From a virus, in IMG/VR virus record IMGVR_UViG_3300003154_000003, positions 1-52,295 of that record: 52,295 nucleotides of DNA; one strand, given 5' to 3'. Shown piece by piece: positions 1 to 52,295 of the stretch. The notes under the pieces are model-generated. The model had not been told where the DNA came from and made no database searches. It worked only from the letters and a program-made list of their open reading frames with translations. The first letter of the stretch is position 1; each line of letters begins with the position of its first letter. The position numbers and the translations under genes were made by a program.

Positions 1-22
1 AAATAATATTATTTTTCCCTAT
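1..22. repeat. Terminal direct repeat, identical to 52274-52295 (circular closure or terminal redundancy)
   Basis: aaataatattatttttccctat occurs at both window ends. The match cannot be followed further because the window stops there. Confidence 0.9.
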
Positions 23-68
23 AATATAATATATAGGGAAAATTTGGCTAAAATCTTCGAAAATATAT
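1..68. promoter_or_regulatory. Right part of the 80-bp concentric palindromic element L1 (origin-like); the left part is 52260-52295
   Basis: Inner arms are ttttccctat (13-22) and atagggaaaa (33-42). The outer arm tcttcgaaaatatat (54-68) is the reverse complement of 52260-52274. After joining the ends through the 22-nt overlap, both arm pairs share the symmetry centre 27.5. Confidence 0.6.
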
Positions 69-1900
69 TTTCCTTGTTTGAAAGTGAGTGCCTCTCTCAT
101 CATCTCTTCAAAGTCGCGGCATCGCTTTATTTCAGGACTTGTTATATTTTTTTCTGTAAATTCTAAACCTGTATCCTCAACTGTATAGTTTTCAGTAACC
201 TTTCGGCCGAAACCCCAAGCGGTAACCGCTTTACATTGTTTCTCATTGCAACCTATAGCAAAAACTAAAGAAGTTTCTTTGCCTCCGGGGTCCTTGACCC
301 TGCTCCATGCTTGCCATGTATCGCTATGGGTTGCCTCATCTCTTAAAGCGTCGCTTTCCTCTTTCGTTTCGCGGTATGCATCGAAAGCGTTAGCCGGTTT
401 TTCTGCGGCACCCACGGCAATCATAACCCGGCAAGAAGAAGAAACACCCATCATCGACGGCGCCTTATAATAGGTTACGGCGTGCGGGTGTTTGCAGTTC
501 TTAAGCCCGTCTTCTAATATTTTTGCTTCCCTTATCGAAAGTGTGATTATTACGCAATCCTCGTCTCCGTAGGTTTCTAAAATTTTTATGATTTTATATA
601 GTGTCTCCGTAGAGCGTTTATAAAAACTATTCTTACCCACGGATGAAAACTTTTTAGTATCAGCTAATATAAGCATTTTCTTATTGGTCTGCATCGGGTC
701 CCCACCATGTCCGAATAAAACATTTTTTATAACAGTTTTCGGCGCAAATAATCCATGATAGTCGTAACTACATATTGTTGCCGATGTTAAAAACATACGC
801 CTATCCTCTCGCTTTTGTGCTTTCTTCATAAATTTGCTTATCATGTCCGTAAACATTTTATCGACGGCCACAATAGAAACTTTTATTTCTCCATACTCCG
901 GCACCGCATGGATATTGATAAATTCCGATGACATTATAGCAAGCATTTTGTAAAGTTTTAATACCTCATCGAGTGATAAATCATATTTCCGCCTGACCAC
1001 GGTTAACTCTATCAACTCGTTATAAGTAGCCACGATTTCCCTTTCGGTAATATCGCTATAATTATTTTTAAAAGTCTTTGATAGCTTATGCTTAAAAAAT
1101 TCCCGGTCTTTGCTATCTAAATATACCATCATAACCCCGTTTTTTATTTCCCCCTCATCTAATAGCATCCCGTAATCTGCTATTATTTTACGCAGTTGTG
1201 GAAAGTCCTGTGTAATCCTTAGATAATTAGTAAGGTTAACCCACTTTGCCCCATCGGCCGCGGCATCATTGTAAACCACCATCCCCGCACCCCGGCCATA
1301 TTGTATTTCATGCACTTCATCAAAAATTATATTTTTAACACCCATTATCTTATTTAAAATCCTTTCGGCCGTGGTGTTCGGTCGGCTATGGGCTGCAAGC
1401 TGCAAAGCTACAAGTTTCTGATAAGTAATAACAATGCCCCGGTAATCGTTACAATGTAATATCTGTGTTACCGGACAGCTATAATAATGCTCGCAATCCG
1501 CGCACTTTTCGGCAAGTGGCAGTATAGGCAATTGTGCCAACTCGGGCCATTGGTGACACTTTTCTTCATTCAGTAAGCACCTATGATTTGAAGGTATGTG
1601 AATTATAACCCCGTCCGGGTTGTCCGAATACTTCCGCGCCTCTTTTATAATAGTATCGTCGGCAATCGCGTTAGTAGGCACAACGGCTAAAAATTTTTCT
1701 TTTCTGTTCATTGATTCCGCAATTAATGCGGTAGTAGCCCCGGCCCTTGTTGTTTTATAAGTACTCGCAATTCCACCCTTTATATTCTCATAGATAGACC
1801 ACGCCACTAATAACCGCGGGTCGCGCGTAATCTGACCTAATTCTATTTGAACCGTCTGTAATTGCCTCCTTATTACAGATGTACTGATAACTATATAAGC
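1..1900 (-). CDS. SF2 helicase, XPD/DinG-like with a Cys cluster; 5-prime part of an ORF that leaves the window at nt 1 and continues at 52273
   Basis: My own block-by-block translation shows the minus frame (codon starts = 1 mod 3) open from the TAA at 1903-1901 to nt 1. Motifs read: YKTTRAGATTAL (degenerate motif I), HRCLLNEEKC...EKCADCEHYYSCP (Cys cluster between motifs I and II), FDEVHE (motif II), LTSAT (motif III), WQAWSRVKD (motif VI-like). The start is unclear; the first canonical start is GTG at 1807. Confidence 0.7.
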
Positions 1901-6821: not shown

Positions 6822-7730
6822 TTATTCCTCCACGTTATCGGTTTCGTCGTCATCATCCTTAACGGTGCAAGCACCGCGGGTTATGTACTCCGCGGCCTTT
6901 GCAGCCCTTCCGGCAGCCCAAACGATAAGCTTCTTATCGTTCTGTAACTTTTCAAGCCACCCAACAATATAAGCGCTGTTTATATCGAAAGTTTCTTCGG
7001 CAATCTCCGCGCCCATCATACCAAGCAGTATAGACGCGCCCATTTCGGCTACAAGTTCTTCGCGGCTGTATGATTCACTTGCGAAAACGTGGTCATCGCC
7101 GTCTATTGCAAAACGGTTTAGACGCTTTGGATGTCCGGTGCTGTGGGTCATTTCGTGAAACATGGCACTATAATATAGTTCCGGCTTTTCGAACTTGTTT
7201 ATTTCCGGCACATTAACCTTGTCCAAAACCTCGCAGTAGTAAGCACCATCATCATAGTGTGTTACTTCCTTAAGTTCCTTAGAGTACAGTTCAACCACAT
7301 TTTCACATTCCTTAATAAGTTCATGCTTAACTGTGCTCTGCTTGCTCTCAATCCCTTCAACCTGCGAGATGTGGAACACATAGTAATATCTAAGCATTGG
7401 AATCCTGACAACTTCCGGGTTTCCATCCTTATCCTTCTTATCGGTCTTCTTTTCAAGCATCTTGAAGTATGTTATAAGGTGTCCGTGCTCTCCCTTCTTA
7501 ACACTTCCTCCGGCCTGCTGTGCCTGCTTGAATGTCATGTATTCGCCACCACCCGGCAGCATGAATAGATTGATACCATGATAAGGCTTTTGTGTAACCC
7601 AATTAACGGGCATACCTTCCGTCCATGTTCTGCGCCACGGTATAACGCCCGTTTCCAAAGCCTTAATCATTCTCTCAGTGACGATTTGGTAAACGTCTAC
7701 CGCCTTGTTGTTGTTGGTCTTTGTTGTCAT
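6822..7730 (-). CDS. ardC: ArdC-like protein: N-terminal ssDNA-binding domain plus C-terminal zincin metalloprotease
   Basis: The N-terminus reads VIPWRRTW...NWVTQKPYHGINLFML, which matches the ArdC/DUF1738 pattern. The C-terminal half contains the HExxH motif FHEMTHSTGH. AGGAGG lies upstream of the ATG. Confidence 0.6.
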   Translation of the reverse strand: MTTKTNNNKAVDVYQIVTERMIKALETGVIPWRRTWTEGMPVNWVTQKPYHGINLFMLPGGGEYMTFKQAQQAGGSVKKGEHGHLITYFKMLEKKTDKKDKDGNPEVVRIPMLRYYYVFHISQVEGIESKQSTVKHELIKECENVVELYSKELKEVTHYDDGAYYCEVLDKVNVPEINKFEKPELYYSAMFHEMTHSTGHPKRLNRFAIDGDDHVFASESYSREELVAEMGASILLGMMGAEIAEETFDINSAYIVGWLEKLQNDKKLIVWAAGRAAKAAEYITRGACTVKDDDDETDNVEE

Positions 7731-40823: not shown

Positions 40824-41357
40824 CTAAAACCCGCGCATCTTGCACTCTTCATTTAATGAACGGGACCCGCGCCACTTGTTGAAATTTGCCCGGCGCTTCT
40901 TACTAAAATTTGTTACATATATAATACTCTGGCCTTCTATGAGCAATTGATGCACAGCAAGCCGTTTAATACGTTTATTCAACTTGCTCCGGGCCGTATG
41001 AAATTCGGCAATCATGCACGTATATAAAAAACAGTAGAGCACTTCAACCGTGTCCGGGTCATGGTATTTATAAGCCAAGTCCTTAATAAGTGTCAATACT
41101 TCCGGGTTAACGGTGTCCGTCGTGTTATCATATATTTTTACATAGTCGTTATATACCCGTTCCCGCCCGTGCTCTTCCGCCACCCCCTCGAGCACTTTGA
41201 AAATTTTATAATCTTTAGGACCATACCCGGATTTTATGGGTATGCACATACTGTTTTGCAAGGTGGCTTTTTGCGTTTTTAAGAAAATACACCATTCATC
41301 AAAGTCACCTTTATCAAAAAACATGTATCCGTGCCAGAATTTCGTTATTAGTTGCAT
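40824..41357 (-). CDS. hypothetical protein, 177 aa
   Basis: Track ORF on the coding strand. Confidence 0.5.
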   Translation of the reverse strand: MQLITKFWHGYMFFDKGDFDEWCIFLKTQKATLQNSMCIPIKSGYGPKDYKIFKVLEGVAEEHGRERVYNDYVKIYDNTTDTVNPEVLTLIKDLAYKYHDPDTVEVLYCFLYTCMIAEFHTARSKLNKRIKRLAVHQLLIEGQSIIYVTNFSKKRRANFNKWRGSRSLNEECKMRGF

Positions 41358-51308: not shown

Positions 51309-52295
51309 CTATTCATGCAGATTCAGCCACGCTTTATAAAAGCCCTCACAATTTTCTATAAGTGTGGTGGTCCTTACACTTGGCAACTCAATACTAATTA
51401 TAGATTCAACGTGATATAGCGACTCGTTGAAATTATAGTCCTTCTGACCCTTAAATAGTTCCGTAAGGGCTACGGGGTCCTTCATACCGGCATTGTAATA
51501 CTCGCGCACACAGTATATACGCAGGTTGTGCCCTTCCTCGCCCTCTAGCTGTTGGGTTAAAGCCCATTCAAAGAACGGCCGAACCTTTCCCGCTCTTACC
51601 TTCATATTCTCCGGCATGTCTACGGCCTCGCTGGCCTCTGCTGCTGGCTCTTTAAATTCAATTCCGCTTATATCGACTATGCCAATTTCCAACTCTGTAA
51701 AATCCTCGCACCATTCACCGTTTATTAAAATTGCTGATTTGTTTCCGGTCTTTCTGTGAGTAGCAAAAGGCAACTTGACAAGATTACCGTATCCTTTTTT
51801 ATCGGCAATCATCTGTTTAGGGTAAACTTCACATTTAACTTTAGCAGTTTTGATAATATGTTTACCGAATAATTTGGCCTGTTTTGCGGCTACCGGTTGC
51901 AATAATATCCAAATATGATATGAAAACGGCGAACCGGACCATTCGAGGATAAAGGGTATGCTTAACGATTTTAGCAAGTTACCAATTTTATTAACATTCT
52001 CGTCTGATTGCTGACATTTTAAATTATATTGACTGTCCGAATCCTCGGGCTTTCTATGAGCATCTATGTCAAAGCATACCCATTTTACCATGTTCCCGGG
52101 TCCTAATGTGTAGGCGCCAACTGTTATTTCACCGGATAAATGACGCTGCAATAGTTCTTCGTCAACTTTACCATTTTCTTTATAGTAACTTCCGCTAGAA
52201 ATTTGTAAAGCGTAAGCGTCCTCCCGTGCTATAAGTAACTGTAAAAAGTTACATCTATTATATATTTTCGAAGAAATAATATTATTTTTCCCTAT
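51309..52295 (-). CDS. archaeo-eukaryotic primase-polymerase (AEP/PrimPol) domain; 3-prime part of the wrap-around helicase-primpol ORF
   Basis: The track lists 51309-52151 from a TTG, but the frame stays open upstream to the window end. AEP motifs read: HLSGEITVGAYTL...WVCFDIDAH (motif I DxD), SGSPFSYHIWILL (motif II), EVYPKQ...GYGNLVKLPFATHRKTGNKS (motif III). Confidence 0.8.
   Translation of the reverse strand: MGKNNIISSKIYNRCNFLQLLIAREDAYALQISSGSYYKENGKVDEELLQRHLSGEITVGAYTLGPGNMVKWVCFDIDAHRKPEDSDSQYNLKCQQSDENVNKIGNLLKSLSIPFILEWSGSPFSYHIWILLQPVAAKQAKLFGKHIIKTAKVKCEVYPKQMIADKKGYGNLVKLPFATHRKTGNKSAILINGEWCEDFTELEIGIVDISGIEFKEPAAEASEAVDMPENMKVRAGKVRPFFEWALTQQLEGEEGHNLRIYCVREYYNAGMKDPVALTELFKGQKDYNFNESLYHVESIISIELPSVRTTTLIENCEGFYKAWLNLHE
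52260..52295. promoter_or_regulatory. Left part of the 80-bp concentric palindromic element L1
   Basis: atatattttcgaaga (52260-52274) is the exact reverse complement of 54-68. The stretch 52261-52277 is identical to the left arm of L2 (10658-10674). Confidence 0.6.
52274..52295. repeat. Terminal direct repeat, identical to 1-22
   Basis: Exact 22-nt match to the window start. Confidence 0.9.

Follow-up and report, generated by a model that had tools for sequence, protein, structure and literature searches.

A probable viral helicase-primase with an XPD/DinG-type helicase domain ahead of its primase in the circular genome of a Methanosarcinales virus

We analysed the virus record IMGVR_UViG_3300003154_000003 over its whole length of 52,295 nucleotides (hereafter the window) and describe a gene in it that encodes a helicase-primase of 923 residues. 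The N-terminal ∼580 residues are, by predicted structure, a superfamily 2 (SF2) helicase of the XPD/Rad3/DinG type, and the C-terminal half is a primase-polymerase of the CAPP/AEP-TOTE type. We consider it probable that this protein is the replicative helicase-primase of a circular head-tailed Methanosarcinales virus, working by the mechanism proposed below. The arrangement is a primase-helicase fusion and thus of an already known kind; we found no earlier description of the reversed order of its parts, and its P-loop is a further oddity.

RESULTS

A single gene spans the junction of the circle

The window is a circular virus genome of ∼52.3 kb whose first 22 bases are identical to its last 22, and because of this terminal overlap the contig is taken to have been opened inside a gene. 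Two open-ended minus-strand open reading frames (ORFs) meet at the junction, one at 2-1807 (602 codons from GTG) and the other at 51309-52295 (328 codons). They share the in-frame overlap peptide IGKNNII, and the helicase-primase gene runs on the minus strand from 1807 to 2 and then from 52273 to 51309. Homologues of the joined product are single proteins of ∼900-990 residues, and two separate genes are ruled out because every full-length homologue is encoded by a single ORF. The original prediction had located the whole protein at 51309-52295; the AEP part does lie there, as the C-terminal third of the 923 residues, but the helicase part is found elsewhere, at 2-1807 on the minus strand across the junction. 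Its claim that the helicase stands N-terminal to the AEP domain is borne out by the joined protein, in which the order is helicase, linker, AEP domain and a helical domain resembling PriL-CTD/PriCT. The linker is short and probably flexible; residues 585-602 are modelled with a predicted local distance difference test (pLDDT) score below 50.

The GTG at 1807 probably truncates the protein, the frame remaining open for 31 further codons upstream (window 1805-1900, minus strand) until the stop codon at 1901-1903. The translation of these codons, ...ITRDPRLLVAW, agrees with the consensus N.D.R..TA..IY at the conserved N-terminus of the homologues, and the differences to L001 are synonymous. The stretch holds no ATG, GTG or TTG; at one position (1868-1870) the window has AGG and L003 has ATG. 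Since one and the same aligned place reads ATA/ATT-GAA in the window as well as in L001, translation may begin at a non-canonical codon.

The N-terminal half is predicted to fold as an XPD/DinG-type helicase

An AlphaFold2 (AF2) model of the helicase half, made with 97 homologues, reached a pLDDT of 90.4 and a predicted TM score of 0.87, and contains two RecA-like SF2 domains with motifs I, Ia (PTN, residues 44-46), II, III and VI in order. When this model was compared with the PDB by Foldseek, the top 22 matches were all XPD, DinG or CasDinG (E 4.5e-13 to 1e-9, 590-720 aligned columns, TM up to 0.50), followed by Hna and then, after a gap, by reverse gyrase, UvrB and SecA at ∼1e-6 to 1e-5. 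Sequence identity to the XPD/DinG matches is only 8-14%. Between motifs II and III the model has an insertion of helices and strands, and the Foldseek alignments to XPD/DinG run over the full length. The possibility that the N-terminal half has a non-helicase fold, which had been named as one way to refute the original prediction, was thus answered by the model: the half is a genuine SF2 helicase whose structure is of the Fe-S (XPD/Rad3/DinG) type, although sequence profiles are weak. Motif conservation was read from the alignment of 97 homologues, and wider counts from 250 family members aligned to a helicase-only hidden Markov model (HMM). The DEVH, LTSAT and QAWSR motifs are present as claimed, and DExH, TSAT and Q..R are invariant across the family; a chance occurrence of helicase motifs is ruled out by their invariance in a family of ∼500 clusters.

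The helicase half is linked to XPD/DinG chiefly by fold comparison, because sequence searches against the PDB gave nothing meaningful. A Pfam scan returned ResIII alone (E 6e-6), PHROGs held no family for this half, and NCBIfam gave only sub-threshold Cas3' noise. The sole significant link to XPD/DinG at the sequence level is the match of the PADLOC typeIV_DinG (CasDinG) model to homologue P0020 (E 2.9e-6). Local hhalign to XPD genes of the host genomes was weak (E 0.0054, probability 6.7%) and collinear, with motifs I, Ia, II, III and VI in register, and in global mode the same comparison produced a nonsense alignment. Since predicted viral proteins of the DinG/Rad3 type exist, the helicase fold is not new to viruses.

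A four-cysteine cluster at the Fe-S site of XPD

Six cysteines (C77, C84, C102, C105, C111 and C119), and not five as first counted, lie between motifs I and II. Four of them form the pattern C-x24-C-x2-C-x5-C, flanked by the strand that follows motif Ia and the one that precedes motif II; this is indeed the site of the Fe-S domain in XPD and DinG. C77 and C111 are present in all aligned family sequences and C102 and C105 in ∼90%; the remaining ∼10% belong to a clade that spaces its four cysteines differently. Residues 71-120 are modelled with pLDDT 84-95. A C-x2-C-x5-C pattern with a distant first cysteine is the classic 4Fe-4S signature of EndoIII/MutY, AddB, Dna2 and Cas4, and the four-cysteine domain most likely binds a 4Fe-4S cluster.

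The module might instead be a structural zinc knuckle in a protein that otherwise acts as we propose. Four cysteines alone do not discriminate between metals, the domain is short (∼45 residues), and its spacing differs in the sister clade. We nevertheless regard zinc as rather unlikely, for against it stand the signature itself, the position of the insertion at the XPD/DinG Fe-S site, and the hosts, which are strict anaerobes rich in Fe-S proteins.

The P-loop has lost its canonical lysine and keeps a basic residue

The sequence TTRAGATT occupies residues 19-26 and has no GK[ST]. Position 24 is the canonical lysine site, because the variant GxTRSGK[ST] fits the textbook GxxxxGK[ST] loop, and it is alanine in the window. 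This had been called a degenerate motif I that leaves ATPase competence uncertain. The lysine of GK[ST] is indeed missing, but the loop is not decayed: K18, T20, R21, G23, T25 and T26 are invariant or nearly so in the 97 homologues, they rank among the best conserved residues of the protein, and the motif is kept in relatives at 22-28% identity.

Moreover, positions 18 and 24 covary in the alignment of 250 members. Lysine at position 18 goes with a non-basic residue at position 24 (C, A, F, V, L and others) in 209 sequences, G18 with K24 in 3, G18 with R24 in 2 and R18 with T24 in 1; both positions are non-basic in 3 sequences, and none combines K18 with K or R at position 24. On a midpoint-rooted tree the G18/K24 trio and the G18/R24 pair lie at two separate places inside the K18 majority. 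Few independent events as these are, they suggest that a basic residue is needed at position 18 or 24 and that the P-loop still binds nucleotide through a relocated lysine, and the same is indicated by the invariance of DExH, Q499 and R503. The covariation therefore softens the doubt about ATPase competence.

The same loop could be read as that of a pseudo-helicase, in which ATP hydrolysis has been lost and the helicase half is a DNA-binding or origin-melting scaffold for the primase while the host MCM unwinds. Of the 218 aligned family members that have the motif, 210 are without the canonical Walker A lysine, and a virus without any other recognisable replication enzyme must recruit host factors anyway. 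Such a loss is improbable, because D163, E164, Q499, R503 and the whole P-loop remain invariant or nearly so down to 22-28% identity, which is hard to explain without nucleotide chemistry, and because, in the two lineages that no longer have K18, a K or R has appeared at the canonical position.

The C-terminal half is a primase-polymerase of the CAPP type

The C-terminal half matched Pfam AEP-TOTE (PF22548) with 89 bits against a cut-off of 27, and 26 of 27 family members also match this profile. A family profile searched against the PDB found the prim-pol domain of Marinitoga CAPP (7nqd/7nqf) at E 2e-35, with DxD, SG..YH, E.FPKQ and GNL.K.P aligned, so that the catalytic motifs noted originally coincide with those of a crystallised enzyme. 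The AF2 model of this half (pLDDT 94.6) matched CAPP in Foldseek at E 3e-13, with TM 0.72-0.75 and a root-mean-square deviation of ∼2.5 Å. The AEP domain also matches the CRISPR-associated PrimPol and DRT UG10 models.

The helical tail that follows resembles PriL in homologues only (NCBIfam E 7.6e-4; Pfam DNA_primase_lrg 2.2e-6 in 2 of 27), and no PriL profile matched the window's own tail directly. The PriL-like segments of two family classes gave 94.9% when compared by hhalign. At least four cysteines with a terminal CxxC occur in the tail of 99 of 134 complete homologues; the window has two cysteines and RPF in place of RPC, and does not keep the four-cysteine cluster of the PriL type. This loss of the tail cysteines RPC...C...CxxC...C, kept by 74% of complete members, is common to the window's clade (window 51312-51593, P0001-P0010) and parallels the cluster-free PriX and PriCT-1 domains.

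Helicase before primase is the majority order of a large family

A word-indexed search found 138 relatives, mostly of 900-990 residues and 40-55% identical, all with a C-terminal AEP domain. A helicase-only profile searched against 1.84 billion cluster representatives gave 505 matches, 316 of them at E<=1e-30. Among 130 new representatives, 61 have the helicase followed by a CAPP-type AEP domain, 25 carry an extension of 420-530 residues before the helicase and form one clade on the tree, and 6 have other C-terminal extensions. Far from being rare, the order helicase-AEP is thus the prevailing one in a large metagenomic family.

The N-terminal extension of the 25-member sister clade has DxD and SGxG motifs and then a PriL-like four-cysteine segment (Pfam DNA_primase_lrg in 3 of 9), and by these motifs it is probably AEP-like, although neither Pfam nor PDB profiles assigned it to an AEP family. 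The sister-clade gene of L009 is followed directly by one for a family B DNA polymerase (PolB). Since the same helicase is joined to primase modules in both orders, the two appear to form a functional partnership and not an accidental fusion. Three members of the sister clade are found on IMG/VR contigs of 44-86 kb (L009:4510-8124, L010:4243-8088 and L011:4462-8136), where proteins of 1100-1290 residues have a divergent AEP-like domain, a PriL-like four-cysteine domain and then the K.TR.G.TT helicase.

The gene was found on eleven IMG/VR contigs, and its carriers are Methanolobus, Methanosarcina, Methanococcoides and Methanothrix/Methanotrichaceae, with a few short contigs binned to unrelated taxa. 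A tblastn search of 50,697 GenBank phage records returned no match, and we found no description of an XPD-like helicase fused to an AEP domain in the literature, the main methanogen-virus compendium (Nature Microbiology) being outside the coverage, so that a prior mention is possible. The original prediction of a type not recognised from described viruses holds in this sense. As to novelty of the domain order, however, the survey of homologues modifies it: helicase-AEP predominates among relatives, and the sister clade has the primase-like part first, which is the conventional order.

As a serious possibility, although one we put forward tentatively and would not call probable, these proteins may constitute a new replicative SF2 family that was drawn from the XPD/DinG Fe-S lineage for virus replication, in which the catalytic lysine has migrated to the first residue of the loop (K-x-T-R-x-G-x-T-T), with an obligate AEP partner and fusion to two AEP types in opposite orders. 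Such a migrated-lysine helicase would be the helicase analogue of the 'with-no-lysine' kinases.

Viral context and candidate origins

The window is the genome of a head-tailed virus, with genes for a terminase large subunit (TerL), a MuF-zeta fusion and a tape measure protein. It also encodes a large protein that contains disaggregatase repeats, which are typical of Methanosarcinaceae. Among the 20 larger ORFs scanned (137-1307 amino acids) there was no DNA polymerase, MCM, clamp or second helicase, and the 923-residue protein is the only recognisable replication enzyme in the window. In a provirus remnant of Methanolobus sediminis a homologue lies near a ParB-methyltransferase and TerL.

A nested palindrome spans the junction, with outer arms ATATATTTTCGAAGA / TCTTCGAAAATATAT and inner arms TTTTCCCTATA / TATAGGGAAAA, and falls exactly in the DNA that encodes the low-confidence linker. 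Its outer arms recur in an intergenic copy. The palindrome in linker DNA and this second copy are all that points to the initiator role which the original prediction gave to the protein. Positions of all features are given in Table 1.

Table 1. Features of the helicase-primase gene and the candidate origins (positions in the window)
Feature	Position	Strand	Basis
N-terminal gene part: XPD/DinG-like SF2 helicase (residues ∼1-580) and start of linker, residues 1-602 from GTG	2-1807	-	ORF, Pfam ResIII, AF2, Foldseek
Deviant motif I / P-loop, K18-T-T-R-A-G-A-T-T26	1730-1756	-	Conservation and covariation of positions 18 and 24
Cysteine cluster C77...C102-x2-C105-x5-C111, candidate 4Fe-4S domain, between motif Ia and motif II	1475-1579	-	Invariant cysteines, AF2, Foldseek, weak hhalign
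Motif II DEVH (Walker B / DExH), residues 163-166	1310-1321	-	D163, E164 and H166 invariant
Insertion of ∼150 residues (∼185-335) between motifs II and III, at the presumed position of the XPD Arch	803-1255	-	AF2 secondary structure, Foldseek
Second RecA-like domain (HD2), residues ∼336-580, with motifs III and VI	68-802	-	Alignment and AF2 model
Motif III LTSAT, residues 340-344	776-790	-	
Motif VI QAWSR, residues 499-503	299-313	-	Q499 and R503 invariant
Nested palindrome in linker-coding DNA, candidate origin	1-68, continuing into 52250-52273 across the junction	.	Fold of the joined sequence
AEP primase-polymerase domain, residues ∼600-805	51666-52283	-	Pfam, PDB profile, AF2, Foldseek
AEP motif DIDAH	52056-52070	-	
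AEP motif SGSPFSYH	51915-51938	-	
AEP motif EVYPKQ	51813-51830	-	
AEP motif GNLVKLP	51768-51788	-	
C-terminal helical domain, last ∼94 residues, PriL-CTD/PriCT-like	51312-51593	-	Helices 240-327 of the C-half model; PriL matches of homologues
Stop codon of the helicase-primase gene	51309-51311	-	
Second, intergenic copy of the outer palindrome arms, TTATATTTTCGAAGAAAT / ATTTCTTCGAAAATATAA	10657-10738	.	

DISCUSSION

We propose that the protein would be loaded at the palindrome in its own linker-coding DNA and at the intergenic copy, and that the helicase, like enzymes of the XPD family, would then travel 5′ to 3′ along the template of the lagging strand. It probably still hydrolyses ATP, for the lysine of the P-loop appears to have moved from position 24 to K18, in a loop that also has the invariant Arg21. 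The cysteine-cluster domain, most likely a 4Fe-4S domain, may serve as the wedge that separates the strands, and the primase module, tethered behind HD2, would make primers on the emerging single strand while the helical domain holds the initiating nucleotide and the template. Host polymerases would extend these primers, because the virus encodes no recognisable DNA polymerase.

Several observations weigh against this proposal. XPD and DinG are repair helicases and not replicative ones, the absence of the canonical Walker A lysine means that the motor could be inactive, and the four cysteines could equally bind zinc. Support from sequence searches is thin: none of 27 family members matched Pfam DEAD_2 (PF06733) or Helicase_C_2, only ResIII and DEAD being found; HMMER found no XPD/DinG family in the window's own helicase half; searches of the PDB with the single sequence and with the full-length profile were empty or non-significant; and the helicase-only profile gave nothing meaningful in the PDB at E<=10, with Rad3 at E 0.55 only. 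Fusion is not obligatory, as 38 of the 130 new representatives are helicase-only, some of them fragments. No origin-binding domain was identified in the protein, and small early-region ORFs of the window without recognisable function might include other replication factors.

An enzyme of repair or damage tolerance, which would restart forks or reprime in the manner of PrimPol together with a repair helicase of the XPD/DinG type, would agree with the repair functions of the structural relatives XPD, DinG and the FANCJ type, and prim-pols of the CAPP clade are not replicative (PMC8211822). We nonetheless think this very unlikely, given that no other protein of a replication type was recognised in this complete 52-kb virus genome, that the sister-clade gene of L009 stands directly upstream of PolB, and that the palindrome is embedded in the helicase-primase gene itself. 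An effector of anti-host or inter-virus conflict of the TOTE/CAPP kind, carried by the virus, is suggested by the Pfam AEP-TOTE assignment and by the CRISPR-associated PrimPol and DRT UG10 matches, but it is the least probable of all and was rejected, because no partner genes (TPR, OB-fold/CSD, TBP or cas) were found among the window's larger ORFs or around P0026 and P0115; the context is one of viral early genes, terminase and ParB-methyltransferase. TOTE stands for TPR, OB, TBP and Effector (PMC12458937), and we found no paper that links TOTE to AEP primases; NCBI's designation 'TOTE conflict system AEP domain-containing protein' is a label at the level of the domain and assigns no function. 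If the protein is a replicative helicase-primase, as we favour, this misleading name on viral replication genes in methanogen genomes would be corrected.

By its model the helicase half shares with XPD/Rad3, DinG and CasDinG the overall four-part fold, with a large insertion between motifs II and III at the presumed place of the Arch domain. Like them it also has a four-cysteine cluster between motifs Ia and II, DExH, a motif III resembling TSAT and Q..R as motif VI. It differs from XPD and DinG in the P-loop, which has no GK[ST] lysine, in a much shorter cysteine domain with C-x2-C-x5-C spacing, and in being virus-encoded and fused to a primase. XPD/DinG-type helicases are monomeric in characterised members.

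The AEP half, in turn, has the catalytic core of Marinitoga CAPP (PDB 7nqd/7nqf/7p9j) at 25-28% identity. CAPP types are found in cas operons and have either a TPR or a helicase at the C-terminus or a reverse transcriptase at the N-terminus (PMC8211822), whereas the AEP domain of the window stands behind the helicase and ahead of a PriL-like domain, in a viral locus in which no cas genes were found. PolpTN2 of the Thermococcus plasmid pTN2 is a PriS-PriL fusion, an AEP domain with a PriL-CTD-like domain (PMC5862659); the present family has the same pair of domains, with a 4-Cys cluster in the PriL-CTD-like domain of most members, but PolpTN2 has no helicase, and the window protein has lost the PriL-type cysteines.

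In having primase and helicase in one polypeptide the window protein is like pRN1 ORF904, the PrimPol-PV1 supergroup and poxvirus D5 and, by analogy, T7 gp4/Twinkle. Primase-helicase fusions are core replication engines of many plasmids and viruses, and to our knowledge the motor of all those described is a ring of SF3, SF4 or MCM type that comes after the primase. In mobile genetic elements such a fusion is often the only replication protein and has a PriCT/PriL-like helper domain after the AEP domain (PMC5862659), and in two surveys of AEP proteins every helicase domain described stands C-terminal to the prim-pol domain (Kazlauskas et al. 2018, PMC5862659; Zabrady et al. 2021, PMC8211822). 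In fusions of the pRN1 ORF904 type the primase is N-terminal and the C-terminal helicase is a hexameric one of SF3, SF4 or MCM type, or a remote SF2; in the window protein, by contrast, an XPD/DinG-type helicase comes first and the primase second. These proteins form a large unnamed family in Methanosarcinales viruses with an XPD/DinG-type motor before the primase. If our proposal is right, viruses can take their replicative motor from the repair-type helicases, here one that probably contains Fe-S and comes from a family with monomeric characterised members. The family would also be a natural experiment on P-loop chemistry, with a relocated lysine whose swap is supported by covariation, and the protein together with its palindrome is a compact candidate replicon for methanogen genetic tools.

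Further observations on the window and on related loci

Two other genes of the window gave clear Pfam matches. The ArdC-like protein at 6822-7730 (minus strand) combines an N-terminal single-stranded DNA-binding ArdC domain with a zincin metallopeptidase (E ∼1e-28 each) and is of the anti-restriction type, and a 177-residue early-region protein at 40824-41357 (minus strand) matches DUF7004 (E 7.5e-39).

In Methanolobus sediminis (L012; CP133592.1, 896042-918942) P0026 is encoded in a short provirus-like island with an IstB-like ATPase, a ParB-methyltransferase, a terminase large subunit and many small ORFs, and BrxL (BREX) genes are found at the other end of this 23-kb locus, ∼7 kb upstream of the P0026 gene. 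One uncultured Methanolobus genome has two copies of the gene (P0021 and P0025). Finally, L016, L024 and L026 carry the gene on short contigs (3.5-12 kb) of metagenome-assembled genomes labelled Micrarchaeota, Dehalococcoidales and Chloroflexota, which are most likely mis-binned fragments of Methanosarcinales viruses.

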